From a virus (lineage: Duplodnaviria > Heunggongvirae > Uroviricota > Caudoviricetes): a DNA stretch of 30,723 bases. The notes under the pieces were generated by a model. The model worked only from the letters and a program-made list of their open reading frames with translations. It was not told the origin of the DNA and did not search any database. Shown here one piece after another: positions 1 through 11,480 of this stretch. The translations under genes were made by a program, and so were the position numbers. The stretch is from IMG/VR virus record IMGVR_UViG_2648501461_000010, positions 1-30,723 of that record; one strand, given 5' to 3'. The first letter of the stretch is position 1. The number at the start of each line of letters is the position of its first letter.

Positions 1-143
1 TTTGTTTTACCTCATTACAGATTTAAGGGTGAACAAATCCCTGCCATTGCTGGCATAAATTCATGGTTAATTTGTGTTTTATAAGTTTTGTGGTTTATCC
101 AGTCATAACGGAAATATAATCTGATCCCGCATTTAATTGCCCG

Positions 144-365
144 TCACCATGATTCCGCTTTTGCGGGCAATCCGTCACGACCGAGGAAGACCTTAATCAT
201 GGTGTCCTTAATGCAATGCTGAGTGCAAAGCCCCCGGATATAAAGTCGGTGTTTTTTAATTTCATTGACAGATGCAACATATGTTCTTCCCTGATACATA
301 ACGTAATCGCCGGGAGTGACGCACTGGCGTGGTATTTCATCGGTTCCGAAGTGATGAGCAATCAT
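144..365 (-). CDS. hypothetical small protein (73 aa) downstream of the Rha gene
   Basis: Intact ORF with a canonical RBS (AAGGAG, 6-nt spacer) before the ATG on the minus strand; no family recognised. Confidence 0.5.
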
Positions 366-410
366 AATAATCTCCTTAATAATTTGTGATATGAAGGAAA
401 TTCCAGAAAA

Positions 411-1259
411 CTATTTAATACTCAGCAACTGCTCGACGGTCATATTTTTAATTGCGCCCCGGTTTATGAGAGTCCATCCCTGCTTTTCCAGATAAAAACG
501 GAAAGTATCCAGAGTACAGACCAGTGCGCCATCAGGAACGGTTTCGGTGAATTTGATGTAGCCGTGTTCGTCGAAGCGGATAACCAGGGTTCGGTCATCA
601 CCCGGGATTATTTTGTCAGCGGGTGTGGTGTTATTCCGGCGCAGTTCTTCCTCCATGCGGTCGAACTCGGCAATGTAGGCTTCCTTGAATGCAGCGGCCT
701 TTTTGCCGGTGAAGCCCATCACCAGGAAAACGAAGCCGTTTTTGGTGATTTGGTAGGCATTGTAGGTATTGCCACGGTGCTCGAATTTAACCCGCGAAAA
801 GTTGCTGGTTAAAAAGCGTTCAGAACATTCGAGGGCCTCTATTTTTTGAACAACATGGTGATGCTGCTTGCCGAAGAATTCTGCGATCGCAATAGACGTA
901 GTGACTGCGCGACCATTTTCAATGGTTACGTCAGGGTGAGAAAGGGTAAGGGTAGTAGCCATGATGGCATCCTCAAGTGTTAAGTTAATTAACTCACCAC
1001 CGAGGCTTTCCACGACCATAAGGGTGGCGAGACGTACAGGGGTGGAAATACCGGTCACTCGAGAACCCGGCCAGCCTTGCAGCTGCCCTGCACGCCCCAC
1101 CATTATCTGAATGTGGCTGTGCTTAACGCATAAAAAAACCGCTTCGGCGCGGTTATGCGCTCGAGTAACTTTCGGGTTTCCACGCCCGGCACCCGGTTTA
1201 TGAGGTGCAGGTGCACTATAATTCCACCCGTACTGGTTTTCAATAGCTACATTCAACAT
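411..1259 (-). CDS. Rha-family phage regulatory protein
   Basis: Central segment (VTTSIAIAEFFGKQHHHVVQKIE...GNTYNAYQITKNGFVFLVMGFTGKKAAAFKEAYIAEFDRMEE) fits the Rha domain. An internal ATG at 962 has a good RBS (GAGGA, 7-nt spacer) and would start the protein just before the Rha domain, so the true start may be 962 rather than 1259. Confidence 0.6.
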   Translation of the reverse strand: MLNVAIENQYGWNYSAPAPHKPGAGRGNPKVTRAHNRAEAVFLCVKHSHIQIMVGRAGQLQGWPGSRVTGISTPVRLATLMVVESLGGELINLTLEDAIMATTLTLSHPDVTIENGRAVTTSIAIAEFFGKQHHHVVQKIEALECSERFLTSNFSRVKFEHRGNTYNAYQITKNGFVFLVMGFTGKKAAAFKEAYIAEFDRMEEELRRNNTTPADKIIPGDDRTLVIRFDEHGYIKFTETVPDGALVCTLDTFRFYLEKQGWTLINRGAIKNMTVEQLLSIK

Positions 1260-1437
1260 TTTCTCTTACCTTTCATCACCGAAGTGAACTTTGTTGATGC
1301 GGTGTCTGGTGCCTCCAGGTGACGTTAACCAGTTAACAATTAACGCCGGATACAGAGAATCCACCCATAACACTGTTTTTGGTTTTAACTGTTCCGCGTG
1401 CGCTCAGCCGCATTCACCGCATCACAAAATTCACTTT

Positions 1438-1495
1438 AAAAAGGGCGGCAGAGCAGTCACGGAGTAAAACTGATACCGCCAAACGTCACCAGAAA
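1438..1495 (-). ncRNA. dicF: DicF-like small RNA (cell-division inhibitor sRNA of Qin/Rac-type prophages)
   Basis: Minus-strand sequence UUUCUGGUGACGUUUGGCGGUAUCAGUUUUACUCCGUGACUGCUCUGCCGCCCUUUUU matches my recollection of E. coli DicF, including the 3' GC stem plus U-run; it lies downstream of a ydfA-like leftward operon as in Qin. Identification is from memory, not a search. Confidence 0.55.
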
Positions 1496-1826
1496 ATTGA
1501 TAACAGAGGGCGTTGCAGCGGGGTTGTCACTTAAGCGTATGGTCAACCTGACAACCCGGTGTCCTCAACGGGGAAGGAATAACCCCGCCATACTTACCGC
1601 CGCGCCATTTCGCGGATTGCCACAACCGGAAGCGCACGGTCGAACTAAATTTAACGACACCGTACAGAGAGACCAATTTCGCCGTGCGCTTTCGCGTTAT
1701 GCCCTGACTTTTCAGGGACATATCCTTTCAGTAAACTGTCAGTGCCGGATTCTCACCCGTGTCCGGCGCACGCACTCCATCTGACCCGTGGAGAACTCCT
1801 TAATTACCAACCCTCAGGAGGGTGAA

Positions 1827-2048
1827 ATGACTAGTAAAAATGTAAATATCCAGTTTAACCACGATGTTTCTCCTGCTGGACTTGCGGATGAACTCACTGC
1901 TATAAAAACGGCAATTATGCTACTTGCTGCTAAGTTGCCAGCAGCATCACAACCATCAGATATTTGTGACTCATTACGTAAGATGAATTCAACAAAATGC
2001 AACGAGATGGCATCACTTATTGAAATAGCTATTGATTTTAATGATTAA
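1827..2048 (+). CDS. hypothetical protein (73 aa), convergent with the leftward early operon
   Basis: ATG at 1827 preceded by a strong RBS (AGGAGG, 5-nt spacer); AT-rich codon usage; the 3' end overlaps the 3' end of the minus-strand gene 2038..2412 by about 10 nt. Confidence 0.4.
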   Translation: MTSKNVNIQFNHDVSPAGLADELTAIKTAIMLLAAKLPAASQPSDICDSLRKMNSTKCNEMASLIEIAIDFND

Positions 2049-2412
2049 TCGAAATCTCATGGCTAACTGTAACACTCCCGTCTGTGGCGGGATGCTTTAA
2101 ATCACAGGAATTAATGCTTCTTGTTGCGAAGTAATTTTCAAGGGGGTTCATTCGAATCCCTTTCTGTTTCATTAACAAGCCAAATCCCTTATCAATGATG
2201 TCCATTAATTCCAAGAAGTATTTTTTATGTAAATCCTGGTTATCAGAGAGTTGCTTCTCTTCGTACAGTCCGATAAAGGCACGACGCACGTTACCGGATA
2301 TATTATCGATGGTTTCTTTTTCTACGATACTCAGGTCAAGAGTCGCCAGTTGGGAACGAACTATATTCGCTGCCATTTCCTGGAATTGCATTGGTAAATC
2401 TTTAAATTCCAT
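2038..2412 (-). CDS. hypothetical early-left operon protein (about 124 aa)
   Basis: ORF directly following the ydfA-like gene on the minus strand; preferred start is the ATG at 2412 (GAGG 6 nt upstream) rather than 2424; no family recognised. Confidence 0.5.
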   Translation of the reverse strand: MEFKDLPMQFQEMAANIVRSQLATLDLSIVEKETIDNISGNVRRAFIGLYEEKQLSDNQDLHKKYFLELMDIIDKGFGLLMKQKGIRMNPLENYFATRSINSCDLKHPATDGSVTVSHEISINH

Positions 2413-2423
2413 CGTCAACCTCA

Positions 2424-2576
2424 TCAGTCAGTGTTTCTGGTTAACCAGCGACGCGCGCCAGCTTCCGTTTTAAACGTTTTGCTTCTGGTATACGTCATCG
2501 CGGTAAACGTTCCGTCCAGGTTGGGGAATACTCCACATACCAGAGATTCGTTGTTGCCAAGCTCGATAGTATCCAT
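2424..2576 (-). CDS. YdfA/YdaF-like small protein (DUF1391-like), first gene of the leftward early operon
   Basis: MDTIELGNNESLVCGVFPNLDGTFTAMTYTRSKTFKTEAGARRWLTRN resembles short YdfA/YdaF proteins of Qin/Rac prophages (from memory). Start chosen at the internal ATG 2576 with GAGG RBS; the longer frame to 2654 is probably leader. The stop overlaps the next gene's first candidate ATG by 1 nt. Confidence 0.5.
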   Translation of the reverse strand: MDTIELGNNESLVCGVFPNLDGTFTAMTYTRSKTFKTEAGARRWLTRNTD

Positions 2577-2757
2577 GCTGACCTCATTTCCCCTTAACGC
2601 CGGGGGAGCGGAACAAAAACCTGCTGCATAGTTAAAGTTGAACCCTGCCGTCATGTTCTTACGCCTCGGGCTGGCTACTTAACCCCTGACCACTGCCGGG
2701 TAACTCGAAGTATTGCCCTGCGTTCTGTGGGGCGGGGTGGGTAGTGGAAATAATCTA

Positions 2758-2795
2758 CAATTAAAAACTGTTTTGTGTCAACAGTTTTTAATTGT
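2758..2795. promoter_or_regulatory. candidate left operator (OL-like) palindrome
   Basis: Perfect 16-bp inverted repeat ACAATTAAAAACTGTT / AACAGTTTTTAATTGT with a 6-bp spacer, placed between the terminator of the repressor-TA operon and the leftward early gene; near-identical to the palindrome between the repressor and cro-like genes. Confidence 0.45.
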
Positions 2796-2805
2796 TGTGT
2801 TGGGC

Positions 2806-2830
2806 AAAAAAACTCCCTCGAATGAGGGAG
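2806..2830 (-). terminator. rho-independent terminator of the repressor/toxin-antitoxin operon
   Basis: On the minus strand, stem CTCCCTC / GAGGGAG with a 4-nt loop followed by a 7-U run, 18 nt downstream of the toxin stop. Confidence 0.55.
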
Positions 2831-2847
2831 TGTGAAAATTGTTCAGT

Positions 2848-3135
2848 TCAGATAGGGAAGGGAAATTGTCGGCGGGCATGCACAATATTTGCAATTTCAA
2901 TGCTTGAAGTTGCTACTCGGTACAAAACGATATAATTAGGGTGAACCACAATTTCCCGCAAACCGGATACTCGATCACTTGGCGGATATAGATATGGATG
3001 CTCAGAGAGGGCTAAAACAGACGTTTCAATCCGTATTTTTAGTCTGCGTGCTGCAGGAATATTTTCCTTAGCAATATAGGCTACGATCTGACGCAAATCA
3101 TCGCGAGCAGATGGTAGCCACAAAATGGGTAACAT
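2848..3135 (-). CDS. type II toxin, RelE/ParE family
   Basis: 95-aa protein with the typical ParE/RelE pattern (RDDLRQIVAYIA...REIVVHPNYIVLYRV...EIANIVHARR); its start overlaps the upstream antitoxin stop by 1 nt (TAATG). Confidence 0.75.
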   Translation of the reverse strand: MLPILWLPSARDDLRQIVAYIAKENIPAARRLKIRIETSVLALSEHPYLYPPSDRVSGLREIVVHPNYIVLYRVATSSIEIANIVHARRQFPFPI

Positions 3136-3326
3136 TACTCGCTCCTGTTAGTTACAGCAATTTGAGCAATAAGATTCTCCATTTCAGCCATTACCTCATC
3201 ATGTGGAATTGAGGGACGAGGGTCTGCAAGGCTTGACGCCACTTTAGCGCGTAACCATTCGTTGTAACTGTTTTCTTGTTCGGTAGTTTCGAATTCTGAA
3301 ACTATCGGAGAAAGGGCTGTACTCAT
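3135..3326 (-). CDS. putative antitoxin of the ParE/RelE-family toxin
   Basis: 63-aa acidic ORF immediately upstream of and translationally coupled to the toxin; GGAG RBS; begins 27 nt after the repressor stop. Assigned mainly by position and size. Confidence 0.6.
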   Translation of the reverse strand: MSTALSPIVSEFETTEQENSYNEWLRAKVASSLADPRPSIPHDEVMAEMENLIAQIAVTNRSE

Positions 3327-3353
3327 GGCATAACTCCTCTTCTTGTACTGTGG

Positions 3354-3755
3354 TCACGCCCGGCGGCTTTTTTGTGCCGCCAACCACCGGGCAATGGTTT
3401 CTTCCATTGATTTTTTCTTGTCTTTGATTTCTTGAAGCATTTTTTCTTGGTCTTCCTCTGGAAACGCACTAAAAGCCTGGAGCAGTTCGCGTTGACGAGG
3501 ACCAATTTTCATCGTGTCAGGGGTGAAAATTTGCTCCCCCTCTTCAGGAGGCAATAAAAACCAATGCAATGGATGCCCTGTAACCTCAACCAGTTTATCC
3601 AAACTTGAGGCTTTAGGTGTAGCCTTACCGCTGACCCATTGTTGAACAGTTTGTTGTGTCACACCAATTCTACGGGCAAGCTCAGCCTGGCTCCATCCAG
3701 TTTCCTGAAGAAGCTTGCTGATTCTGTACATAGATACTTCTAGGGCGTTCATCAT
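3354..3755 (-). CDS. prophage repressor, HTH XRE family (DicA/CI-like)
   Basis: N-terminal helix-turn-helix (SQAELARRIGVTQQTVQQW) and a C-terminal region resembling DicA; divergent from a Cro-like gene. The start could instead be the in-frame ATG at 3731 (MYRISKLL...). Confidence 0.8.
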   Translation of the reverse strand: MMNALEVSMYRISKLLQETGWSQAELARRIGVTQQTVQQWVSGKATPKASSLDKLVEVTGHPLHWFLLPPEEGEQIFTPDTMKIGPRQRELLQAFSAFPEEDQEKMLQEIKDKKKSMEETIARWLAAQKSRRA

Positions 3756-3791
3756 TATTCAATTTTACAGGTAAATACTGTTAAAAGCATC

Positions 3792-3830
3792 ACAATAAAA
3801 AACTGTTGATTGTGTACAGTTTTTTATTGT
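3792..3830. promoter_or_regulatory. candidate right operator (OR-like) palindrome in the repressor/cro divergent promoter region
   Basis: Perfect 15-bp inverted repeat ACAATAAAAAACTGT / ACAGTTTTTTATTGT with a 9-bp spacer in the 109-bp gap between the divergent repressor and cro-like genes. Confidence 0.5.
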
Positions 3831-3864
3831 AGGCTTTGCTTATAGTTTTTTAGAGGAGAGCAAA

Positions 3865-4137
3865 ATGCTAGATAGCACTCGCGAAAAAATTAGGCAGAAA
3901 TACACTCAAGCTGAAATAGGTCGTTATATGGGGGTCGCTCAACAGACTGTTTGGCAATGGTTTAGCTTTGACGTTCCCCCAAAGCAGGTAATTCCGTTAT
4001 GTCAGCTAATGAAGTGGGAAGTTACCCCGCATGAAATTCGCCCTGATATTTATCCTAACCCAACCGACGGTTTACCTGTTGGATTCAAGGTTAACACATC
4101 AAATGCACCGGAGCTGATTCATGAAAATCAAGCATGA
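3865..4137 (+). CDS. Cro-like HTH regulator (YdaS/DicC-like)
   Basis: 90-aa protein with an HTH (YTQAEIGRYMGVAQQTVWQW); divergent from the repressor; strong RBS GAGGAGAG; followed by a YdaT homologue as in Rac. Confidence 0.7.
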   Translation: MLDSTREKIRQKYTQAEIGRYMGVAQQTVWQWFSFDVPPKQVIPLCQLMKWEVTPHEIRPDIYPNPTDGLPVGFKVNTSNAPELIHENQA

Positions 4138-4546
4138 ACACATCCGCATGGCAATGAATGCCTGGGCGTATCCAGACGGTGAGAAAGTTCCAGCAGCTGA
4201 AATAGCCCGGACTTATTTCGAGCTGGGAATGACGTTCCCGGAACTGTATGACGACAGCCATCCGGAAGCCCTGGCTCGCAATACCCAGAAAATTTTCCGC
4301 TGGGTAGAGAAAGACACCCCTGATGCAGTTGAAAAAATTCAGGCGTTGTTACCAGCGATCGAAAAGGCAATGCCACCTTTGCTGGTGGCCAGAATGCGCA
4401 GCCACAGTTCAGCTTATTTTCGGGAGCTGGTGGAGACGCGGGAGCGACTGGTGAGAGACGCTGATGATTTTGTCGCAGTGGCAATCGCCGGTTTCAATCA
4501 GATGAACCGTGGTGGCCCGGCAGGAAATGCTGTGGCAGTACATTGA
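4121..4546 (+). CDS. ydaT: YdaT-family protein (CII-like regulator, reported toxic in Rac)
   Basis: 141-aa sequence (MKIKHEHIRMAMNAWAYPDGEKVPAAEIARTYFELGMTFPELYDDSHPEALARNTQKIFRWVEKDTPDAV...) closely matches my recollection of E. coli Rac YdaT; it overlaps the cro-like gene's 3' end. Confidence 0.75.
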   Translation: MKIKHEHIRMAMNAWAYPDGEKVPAAEIARTYFELGMTFPELYDDSHPEALARNTQKIFRWVEKDTPDAVEKIQALLPAIEKAMPPLLVARMRSHSSAYFRELVETRERLVRDADDFVAVAIAGFNQMNRGGPAGNAVAVH

Positions 4547-4617
4547 CTGACAATAGCCATATCGAATCGCTTCCGGCAACTCGTGAGTAAAAAGATTCGG
4601 TATCAGAAGAGGTGAGT

Positions 4618-5688
4618 ATGGCTAACGCCTGGCTCAGATTATGGCATGACATGCCAAATGACCCTAAGTGGCGAACAATTGCCAGGGTGTCAGGGCAGCC
4701 AATTGCAACAGTGATGGCAGTGTATATCCACCTCCTGGTGAGCGCGTCACGAAATGTCACGCGAGGTCACATTGATGTCACGACAGAAGATTTGGCAAGT
4801 GCGCTCGACGTGACAGAAGAGGTAATTGATTCAATTTTGCAGACGATGCAGGGGCGGGTACTTGATGGTGATTTAATCACTGGATGGGAAAAACGCCAGG
4901 TGCTTAAAGAGGACAACGGCAATATTTCGCAAACCGCAAAATCTCCTGCAGAGCGCAAGAGGGCGCAGCGAGAGAGGGAAAGAAAGCGGGAACAAAATGG
5001 CGATTGTCACGGCGCGTCACGAAATGTCACGCACATGTCACGACGAGTCACGACAGATAAAGATACAGATAAAGATACAGATCAAGAAGATCAAAACACT
5101 ATGGTCCATGGCGTAAAAAACGCCACGAACCAGGCAGGGGATGTTCAGACCGTCAATCTTGGTCAGCCAGCAGGCACGACACCGGAAGCCGATTCAGCGT
5201 ATGCGCTGAAAGCCGATTCGGGCGCTGTGCAGCAGGTGATGACCGCAAGGCCGGAGCAATCACACCAACTGCAGCAGCCTGAAGCCGATTCCGCCATTCA
5301 GCGGGAAGCCGATCGGGTAGTCCCGGAAAACACCGGGCAGCCTGTGGGACGAGTGGATTATCCGGATGTGTTCGAACAGGTCTGGCGGGAATACCCGTTG
5401 CGTGCTGGGGCAAACCCGAAGAAATCCGCTTTCAGTGCCTGGAAGGCCAGATTACGCGAGGGGGTGCCACCAGAGGCCATGCTGGATGGTGTGAGGCGTT
5501 ACGCAAGATACCTGGCGGCTACCGGGAAAACGGGAACGGAATTTGTTCAGCGAGCGACGACGTTTTTTGGACCGGACCGGAATTTTGAAAACCCCTGGTT
5601 GCTCCCGGTAAGCGGCACGAACAACCAGCGTTGTGTGAATCATATTTCTGAACCGGATAACGAAATTCCGCCGGGCTTCAGGGGGTAA
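4618..5688 (+). CDS. replication initiator / replisome organizer (O-like)
   Basis: N-terminus (ANAWLRLWHDMPNDPKWRTIARVSG) fits the phage replisome-organizer motif; the coding sequence contains two iteron arrays and an AT-rich tandem repeat, as lambda O contains ori. Start placed at the ATG at 4618 (RBS AGAGG); the ORF track uses the GTG at 4612. Confidence 0.65.
   Translation: MANAWLRLWHDMPNDPKWRTIARVSGQPIATVMAVYIHLLVSASRNVTRGHIDVTTEDLASALDVTEEVIDSILQTMQGRVLDGDLITGWEKRQVLKEDNGNISQTAKSPAERKRAQRERERKREQNGDCHGASRNVTHMSRRVTTDKDTDKDTDQEDQNTMVHGVKNATNQAGDVQTVNLGQPAGTTPEADSAYALKADSGAVQQVMTARPEQSHQLQQPEADSAIQREADRVVPENTGQPVGRVDYPDVFEQVWREYPLRAGANPKKSAFSAWKARLREGVPPEAMLDGVRRYARYLAATGKTGTEFVQRATTFFGPDRNFENPWLLPVSGTNNQRCVNHISEPDNEIPPGFRG
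4742..4784. repeat. iteron array 1 (GTCAC repeats) inside the initiator gene
   Basis: GTCAC at 4746, 4756, 4766 and 4777, spaced 10-11 bp; the 21-bp unit GCGCGTCACGAAATGTCACGC recurs at 5012. Confidence 0.6.
5002..5093. repeat. iteron array 2 plus AT-rich tandem repeat (candidate replication origin)
   Basis: GTCAC at 5006, 5016, 5026, 5037 and 5047 at about 10-bp (one helical turn) spacing, followed by tandem GATAAAGATACA x2 and an A-rich tract. Confidence 0.6.
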
Positions 5689-6307: not shown

Positions 6308-6994
6308 ATGACCCCAATAAAAATATTTATGACTATTGCTGATTTCAAACGGCCTAAATTGGAGCTCCCAAACGGGGCAAACAAACTACTACTGCACTCT
6401 TGCTGTGCTCCATGTTCCGGTGAAGTGATGGAGGCGCTTCAGGCCTCGGGAATCGACTACACCATCTTTTTCTACAACCCGAACATTCATCCTCAGAAAG
6501 AGTATTTAATTCGTAAGGATGAAAATATTCGCTTTGCTGAACAACACGGCGTGCCGTTTATCGATGCTGATTACGACACCGACAACTGGTTTGAACGTGC
6601 CAAAGGAATGGAATGGGAGCCTGAGAGGGGGATCCGTTGTACCATGTGTTTTGACATGCGTTTTGAGCGGACAGCGTTGTACGCTGCTGAAAATGGTTTC
6701 AGTGTGATCAGCAGTTCACTGGGCATTTCACGCTGGAAAAATATGCAGCAGGTTAACGAGTGTGGGCGGCGAGCTGTTGCGCATTATCCGGGTATGGTGT
6801 ACTGGGATTATAACTGGCGCAAGCAGGGCGGCTCGTCCCGTATGATTGAAATCAGCAAGCGCGAAAAATTCTATCAGCAGGAATATTGTGGCTGTGTGTA
6901 TTCTCTGCGCGATACCAATCTACACCGCAAATCTCAGGGGCGCCCTCTTATCAAAATTGGCCAACTCCACTACGGAAAAGAAGAGAAGGAGTGA
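6308..6994 (+). CDS. queH: epoxyqueuosine reductase QueH (DUF208 family)
   Basis: N-terminal [11 protein letters not shown] motif plus downstream conserved Cys residues and a size of about 225 aa are characteristic of QueH. Alternative start ATG at 6329. Confidence 0.75.
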
Positions 6995-7231
6995 TTTTAT
7001 GGATCACCTTTCTGATTGATTTCATATTGGCGAGGTGACGTGAGTTAAGTAGAATTGCTGCGGGTGCTTGAGGCTATCTGCCTCAGGCATGAACACCAAA
7101 AGGCAGATAGAGAAAAGCCCCAGTTAACATTACGCGTCCTGCAAGACGCTTAACATTAATCTGAGGCTCAATCCATGCTGAACACATGTAGGTTAGCCTC
7201 TTACGTGCCGAAAGGCAAGGAGAAGCAGGCT

Positions 7232-7387
7232 ATGAAGCAGCAAAAGGCGATGTTAATCGCCCTGATCGTCATCTGTTTAACCGTCATAGTGACGGCACTG
7301 GTAACGAGGAAAGACCTCTGCGAGGTACGAATCCGAACCGGCCAGACGGAGGTCGCTGTCTTCACAGCTTACGAACCTGAGGAGTAA
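7232..7387 (+). CDS. Hok/Gef-family type I toxin
   Basis: MKQQKAMLIALIVICLTVIVTALVTRKDLCEVRIRTGQTEVAVFTAYEPEE matches the Hok consensus (transmembrane helix, LTRK..LCE, EVA..AYE); RBS AAGGAGAAG; followed by the typical structured 3' end and terminator. Confidence 0.8.
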   Translation: MKQQKAMLIALIVICLTVIVTALVTRKDLCEVRIRTGQTEVAVFTAYEPEE

Positions 7388-11170: not shown

Positions 11171-11246
11171 GGCCCTTTAGCTCAGTGGTGAGAGCGAGCG
11201 ACTCATAATCGCCAGGTCGCTGGTTCAAATCCAGCAAGGGCCACCA
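11171..11246 (+). tRNA. tRNA with CAU anticodon (tRNA-Ile2 type, lysidine-dependent, or tRNA-Met)
   Basis: 76-nt cloverleaf by manual folding, anticodon loop CUCAUAA, 3' CCA encoded; close to my recollection of E. coli ileX. Confidence 0.8.
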
Positions 11247-11247
11247 A

Positions 11248-11324
11248 CCGCCACTAGCTCATCAGGAAAGAGCGTCAACCCTTTAAGTTGAGAGTGCGAG
11301 GTTCGAGTCCCCGGTGGCGGTCCA
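11248..11324 (+). tRNA. tRNA-like gene, anticodon UUU (Lys) with atypical C33
   Basis: 77-nt cloverleaf by manual folding: 7-bp acceptor stem, D-loop with GG, TPsiC loop UUCGAGU, encoded CCA; anticodon stem UCAAC/GUUGA with loop CCUUUAA. Position 33 is C instead of the near-universal U, and the T-stem has one A-C mismatch. Confidence 0.55.
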
Positions 11325-11326
11325 GT

Positions 11327-11402
<76 letters not shown>

Positions 11403-11405
11403 TAT

Positions 11406-11480
<75 letters not shown>

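Follow-up and report, generated by a model that had tools for sequence, protein, structure and literature searches.

A near-complete lambdoid prophage of ExPEC E. coli very likely carries a functional dicF gene in its leftward early operon (pL-like, dicB-type). DicF is a prophage sRNA that prevents synthesis of FtsZ, a cell-division protein. The computed basis comprises the identity of DicF, its structure, the flanking processing helices, the target leader, the synteny of the operon and a duplicated operator-like palindrome, all analyzed in a stretch of 30,723 nucleotides (the window). Expression, processing, repressor control and phenotype of this DicF copy are carried over from E. coli K-12 and would hold here by analogy.

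Positions 1-5000 of the window are 100% identical to the prophage adjoining tRNA-Ser/mtfA in the ExPEC strain IHE3034, and the same prophage was found over these positions at 100% identity in about 30 further genomes. The remaining window carries genes for replication, the Q antiterminator, tRNAs, lysis, terminase, head and tail; the integrase gene is frameshifted. As the gene set from replication to tail is present and only the integrase is frameshifted, we regard the element as a near-complete lambdoid prophage. In this respect it differs from Qin, the cryptic prophage remnant that carries the dicBF operon in K-12.

Judged by its sequence, the minus strand of positions 1438-1495 is an intact, bona fide dicF gene. 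A search of the whole window against the Rfam 15 covariance models yielded a match to RF00039 (DicF) at 1443-1494 on the minus strand with a score of 76.7 bits (E 1.7e-15; gathering score 48). The match spans all model positions (1-52 of 52), with every consensus pair formed and zero non-canonical pairs flagged. Moreover, 1443-1495 is identical to dicF (b1574) of K-12 MG1655 in 53 of 53 nucleotides, including the 5′ single-stranded part and the loop, which are the pairing regions. A chance resemblance to DicF was ruled out by the Rfam E-value together with the 100% identity. The hairpin stem extends from 1480 to 1444 and is followed by a C and by UUUUU at 1442-1438; the fold has an energy of -15.9 kcal/mol (z -2.1). 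A first-pass annotation, made from the letters of the DNA, had assigned 1438-1495 on the minus strand to DicF and had described a GC stem plus U-run. Coordinates, strand, identity and both parts of the terminator were correct, and the covariance-model search proposed with that assignment gave the significant match reported above. The element as such is already known, a textbook sRNA with the same sequence as the reference copy. Positions of all features are compiled in Table 1.

Table 1. Features of the DicF operon, its downstream module and the adjacent immunity region, with window coordinates.
Feature	Position	Strand	Evidence
kil, protein inhibitor of FtsZ, 73 aa	144-365	-	PHROG 294 Kil, E 3e-32; RefSeq gene name kil
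Rha/antirepressor-family gene	411-962	-	Pfam Phage_pRha; PHROG Rha and anti-repressor families
C4 antisense RNA	1020-1107	-	Rfam, 73.8 bits (gathering 45)
isrK RNA, with terminator	1132-1208	-	Rfam, 66.6 bits (gathering 50)
isrK promoter-like site	1243-1215	-	Promoter scan
Structured element 3′ of DicF	1285-1433	-	Fold; same fold in K-12
DicF intrinsic terminator	1438-1480	-	RNA fold and Rfam consensus structure
DicF sRNA, 53-nt mature form	1443-1495	-	Rfam RF00039 and K-12 identity
Untranslated leader, 313 nt, homologous to Qin ydfC-dicF spacer	1496-1808	-	Alignment
73-aa convergent ORF, function unassigned	1827-2048	+	PHROG 7249 full length, E 9e-46; RefSeq WP_000202161.1
124-aa phage ORF, function unassigned	2038-2412	-	PHROG 6937 full length, E 3e-82
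ydfA homologue (DUF1391), first gene of DicF operon	2424-2576	-	Pfam, E 6.6e-27; K-12 ydfA alignment; RefSeq
Candidate operon promoter and overlapping palindrome	2752-2795	-	Promoter scan; inverted-repeat search
relB and relE toxin-antitoxin pair	2848-3326	-	RefSeq
Short DicA-type HTH repressor, 133 aa	3354-3755	-	Pfam HTH_3
Second palindrome copy (82% identical), candidate immunity operator	3792-3830		Repeat family and inverted repeat

The conservation extends well beyond the sRNA itself. Homology to Qin resumes at approximately 1808, reaches near-identity from approximately 1660 and continues through the leader, DicF and a further 150 nucleotides or so, ending at approximately 1285. In the leader, a long hairpin (about 1630-1691) is predicted, in which about 1691-1677 pairs with about 1630-1642. 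By homology with K-12, the RNase E site at the DicF 5′ end is part of this leader as well. The structured element on the 3′ side is predicted to be closed by a 19-bp helix formed between 1433-1415 and 1285-1304. The 158 nucleotides directly 3′ of DicF (1285-1442) fold with -55.8 kcal/mol (z -4.17), and none of 200 shuffled sequences was equally stable. For the whole leader plus DicF (377 nt) a z of -1.67 was obtained, the sub-elements alone being informative. Both RNase III helices are predicted identically in the window and in K-12; the few differences in the stems convert G-U into G-C pairs and leave the pairing intact. The downstream mosaic breakpoint, at which Qin homology stops, is located directly after the 3′ arm of the 19-bp helix.

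In K-12, DicF is cut from the polycistronic transcript of dicBp, and no internal promoter was found (PMC5069750; PMC10448788). RNase III generates a 190-nt species and RNase E the 5′ end of the 53-nt RNA. The 3′ end arises in two ways: termination yields the 53-nt form, and RNase III cleavage of readthrough transcripts the 72-nt form (PMC5069750; PMC10448788). Terminated transcripts of 1,146 nt and readthrough transcripts of 1,608 nt have been described (PMC10448788). We placed the RNase III cuts in the window according to the published RNA lengths, because the published coordinate 813/814 (PMC10448788) does not fit the lengths of 1,146 and 190 nt under one numbering. The 5′ end of the 190-nt species would then lie at about 1632, inside the leader hairpin, and the cut giving rise to the 72-nt isoform at about 1424, inside the 19-bp helix.

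The segment 1285-1442 on the minus strand gave a sub-threshold Rfam match to STnc100 (31.6 bits, against a gathering score of 47). A distant relationship between the dicF-dicB spacer of Qin and the STnc100/PasD family of prophage sRNAs is therefore conceivable; DicF goes unmentioned in the only recent paper that deals with STnc100 relatives.

The synteny upstream of dicF is partly that of Qin. In both prophages, ydfA is located upstream of dicF in the same orientation. The initial description, which placed DicF downstream of ydfA-like genes and compared this with Qin, is borne out by the Qin homology of ydfA, leader, DicF and 3′ element alike. In contrast, ydfB/ydfC of Qin are replaced here by the 124-aa ORF and the convergent 73-aa ORF, both of which are low in G+C (approximately 0.38 for 1827-2048). 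Alignment of the 124-aa ORF (2038-2412) to K-12 ydfB/ydfC revealed no homology, and the Pfam scan returned no match for either of the two replacing ORFs. The plus-strand ORF at 1827-2048, which had likewise been pointed out in the first-pass annotation, does exist: it is annotated in RefSeq and covered by PHROG 7249 from end to end. It is preceded by a strong Shine-Dalgarno sequence (GGAGG) and is probably a real gene. Provided that the operon transcript starts at the candidate promoter at about 2752-2781 (start at about 2745), this ORF would be antisense to the DicF precursor, and the convergent gene might tune the precursor level by antisense transcription.

Three close relatives (EC9682, W224N and DETEC-S589) carry an IS1A between the 124-aa ORF and the 73-aa ORF, at 1561-2258 of the relative's locus, which is equivalent to about 2030-2050 of the window. 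In these relatives the insertion separates DicF from its inferred promoter. The presence of IS1 between promoter and DicF in three relatives shows that the DicF operon tolerates interruption without obvious cost.

The candidate operon promoter consists of TTGACA (2781-2776), an 18-nt spacer and TAGATT (2757-2752) and matches the consensus in 10 of 12 positions. The promoter scan overall was not enriched over shuffled sequences (9 found versus 7.8 expected), so that it is the context that supports the promoter call. The candidate promoter is overlapped by a perfect palindrome (2757-2795), each arm of which measures 16 nt. Its second copy at 3792-3830 resides in the divergent intergenic region between the repressor gene and a YdaS-like cro analogue. 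The same two-site layout exists in K-12 Qin, where a different 16-mer is found in the dicC-dicA intergenic region and upstream of ydfA; in both prophages an operator-like repeat thus marks the immunity region and the operon promoter. Because of this shared layout, we read 2752-2795 as a candidate equivalent of dicBp with its operator. By analogy, the shared palindrome suggests that the operon promoter is under repressor control as at dicBp.

Like Qin, the prophage encodes a short DicA-type repressor. The protein (3354-3755) is similar to DicA in length, and the two are just 28% identical over 111 aa (E 2e-12). The different operator sequence and the low identity of the repressor indicate that the prophage is probably heteroimmune to Qin. 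The relBE genes, which in Qin are found elsewhere in the prophage, are located here between the repressor gene and the DicF-operon promoter and are co-oriented with the repressor gene. They are followed by a terminator-like hairpin (2831-2812). From 2750 to 1500 on the minus strand, the terminator scan detected no terminator-like site.

The host target site is likewise unchanged: from -60 to +30, the ftsZ sequences of IHE3034 and K-12 are identical. In K-12, DicF binds Hfq and base-pairs to repress ftsZ, xylR and pykA (PMC5069750). The 5′ single-stranded part and the loop of DicF pair with xylR/pykA and ftsZ (PMC5069750). As both the sRNA and the ftsZ leader are identical to their K-12 counterparts, the DicF-ftsZ pairing proven in K-12 should apply unchanged. 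Repression of xylR and pykA via the 5′ region should also hold, because the sRNA is the same. The pairing claim is based on identity to the tested K-12 pair and not on computation. A duplex energy of -38.5 kcal/mol was calculated for DicF and the ftsZ leader and discarded as evidence: of 1000 shuffled versions of DicF, 75 performed equally well, as did 136 of 1000 segments taken at random from the host, and the value was not counted as support.

Following the K-12 model, we propose that relief of the DicA-type repressor would permit transcription from the operator-covered promoter at about 2752-2781. The transcript would run through ydfA and the 124-aa ORF into the long untranslated leader. 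RNase III would cleave the long helices on either side of DicF, and RNase E would cut at 1495 to give the mature 5′ end. The hairpin and U-run (1438-1480) would terminate transcription, which would define the 3′ end and release a 53-nt, Hfq-binding sRNA. DicF would then pair with the ribosome-binding region of ftsZ, thereby blocking translation and delaying division, and would act on the known targets xylR, pykA and manX as well.

The remodelling of the operon raises the question of whether the precursor is made at all, or reaches DicF, or whether the gene is an intact but silent relic producing an RNA without a role. The promoter region and the segment from ydfA to the leader are not Qin-homologous. 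The precursor would have to traverse a convergent gene, probably a real one, that could interfere with its transcription, and close relatives carry IS1-interrupted versions. Furthermore, even K-12 keeps the operon under tight repression (PMC10448788). These points are set against the state of the locus itself: DicF and about 470 nucleotides of processing structure around it show 100% identity to K-12 or close to it, although the adjacent segments have been swapped. The palindrome at the promoter-like site recurs in the immunity region, which would be expected of a regulated early promoter. No terminator-like site intervenes, and the prophage is otherwise near-complete. We consider a silent relic very improbable.

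It is scarcely credible that the element serves mainly as terminator and processing punctuation of the phage, setting readthrough into the antirepressor, kil and recombination genes with ftsZ control as a side effect: the 3′ half of DicF is indeed a Rho-independent terminator between operon segments, predicted RNase III-type helices flank it, K-12 produces both the terminated (1,146-nt) and the readthrough (1,608-nt) transcript, and the mosaic breakpoints coincide exactly with the borders of the structured block, but the 5′ single-stranded part and the loop are invariant although they are not needed for termination, and precisely these parts pair with xylR/pykA and ftsZ in K-12 (PMC5069750). 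The terminator and sRNA roles of DicF are not mutually exclusive. A functional, repressor-controlled dicF remains the reading that we favor.

Downstream of the 3′ element, the locus departs from Qin. The homology stops approximately 30 nucleotides before the position of the K-12 dicB start codon (ATG), and the 62-aa division inhibitor is not encoded; unlike Qin, the prophage lacks both dicB and ydfD. The place of dicB is occupied by an isrK-C4-Rha/antirepressor module and kil. It had been stated previously that the gene following DicF is a Rha-family regulator rather than dicB. A Rha ORF is in fact located downstream and the dicB coding sequence is missing entirely; the statement needs refinement in that the isrK and C4 RNA genes lie between DicF and the Rha domain. 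Within the isrK-C4 module (1020-1243), a sub-threshold Rfam match to c4-a1b1 was also obtained.

RefSeq annotates the Rha ORF at 411-1259 (282 aa), crossing the isrK and C4 RNA genes. The Phage_pRha match (E 5.7e-26) comprises aa 120-204 of this long ORF. The N-terminal third is probably an over-extension, the true start being the ATG at 962 behind a GAGGA motif. A match to the Pfam family Phage_ASH (PF10554) at aa 14-108 of the long ORF covers exactly the isrK/C4 stretch (936-1259), and this family may be built in part on translated RNA genes. A further RefSeq feature, "DicB pseudogene, missing C-terminus" (1290-1373), corresponds to an in-frame stretch of the leader alone, upstream of the K-12 dicB start codon. 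The product name given by RefSeq for Kil (144-365), "cell division protein FtsZ", is an error; the Pfam scan gave no match for this protein. The prophage carries Kil and DicF, both aimed at FtsZ, and dicB is absent.

The order of elements in this module is known from other phages. As in isrK-orf45-anrP of Gifsy-1 (PMC4825925), full-length isrK and C4 matches precede a Rha/antirepressor-family gene that has the same orientation. The immI region of P1 (c4-icd-ant) similarly has a C4 RNA upstream of a Rha/Ant-family gene. In contrast to the Gifsy-1 and P1 modules, the module described here directly follows DicF and occupies the position of dicB. A leaky DicF terminator could couple the early-left operon to the isrK/C4-gated antirepressor and kil directly downstream, which we regard as unlikely. 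If it were true, derepression would hit ftsZ at two levels, with DicF acting on the mRNA and Kil on the protein, and the antirepressor would feed forward onto induction of the prophage itself or across prophages.

Searches with a 181-nt query comprising DicF plus flanks detected it in 4,372 of 5,426 complete E. coli genomes; the number of places per genome had a median of 2 and reached 9. None of the DicF matches listed had a RefSeq feature beneath it. Given its identity to K-12 and its presence in most E. coli genomes, DicF is ordinary here. The junction from the DicF leader to isrK/Rha was found in 380 genomes at a coverage of at least 80%, and the pair of ORFs upstream of the leader (124 aa and 73 aa) in 87 genomes. 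On sequence grounds, the DicF-to-Rha junction and the upstream ORF pair are recurrent mosaic variants. Various prophages in which DicF is accompanied by an incomplete dicBF operon have been reported before (PMC5069750).

The DicF leader together with DicF is also present in 57 sequenced phage records at approximately 94-95% identity, among them Stx2a/Stx2c-converting phages and induced vB_Eco coliphages. In 2016, DicF was reportedly absent from the phage databases of that time. EHEC Sakai/86-24 are described as carrying four DicF copies (Melson and Kendall 2019, as cited in PMC7873438; PMC5069750, Fig. 9). More than one copy per genome was likewise seen in our collection (median 2); unlike the EHEC copies, the copy analyzed here belongs to a prophage of ExPEC (B2/ST95-type). 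The EHEC-specific DicF targets pchA and stx2A are not expected in this ExPEC host. A literature search for DicF in ExPEC, UPEC or IHE3034 found nothing specific.

Knowledge of DicF itself is unchanged by this locus. It adds one more context in which DicF occurs, namely a near-complete prophage with DicF and Kil, without DicB and with an RNA-gated antirepressor instead. The practical value lies in annotation, as the RefSeq/PGAP records of these ExPEC genomes are without a DicF feature. Corrections concern the dicF-dicB leader, which is mislabelled as a DicB pseudogene, and the Rha ORF, which is stretched over two RNA genes. Effects of DicB dominate toxicity in K-12, and the locus could be a handy natural background to separate DicF from DicB effects.

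Further elements were noted in other parts of the prophage. A full-length sok antitoxin RNA (120.5 bits) is found with the hokD toxin gene at 7062-7387 on the plus strand, in the early-right region. A homologue of QueH (epoxyqueuosine reductase) at 6308-6994 on the plus strand represents a tRNA-modification moron. Finally, a cluster of four tRNA genes, assigned to Ile, Lys, Thr and Gly in RefSeq, is located at 11171-11477 on the plus strand between the Q antiterminator and the lysis genes.
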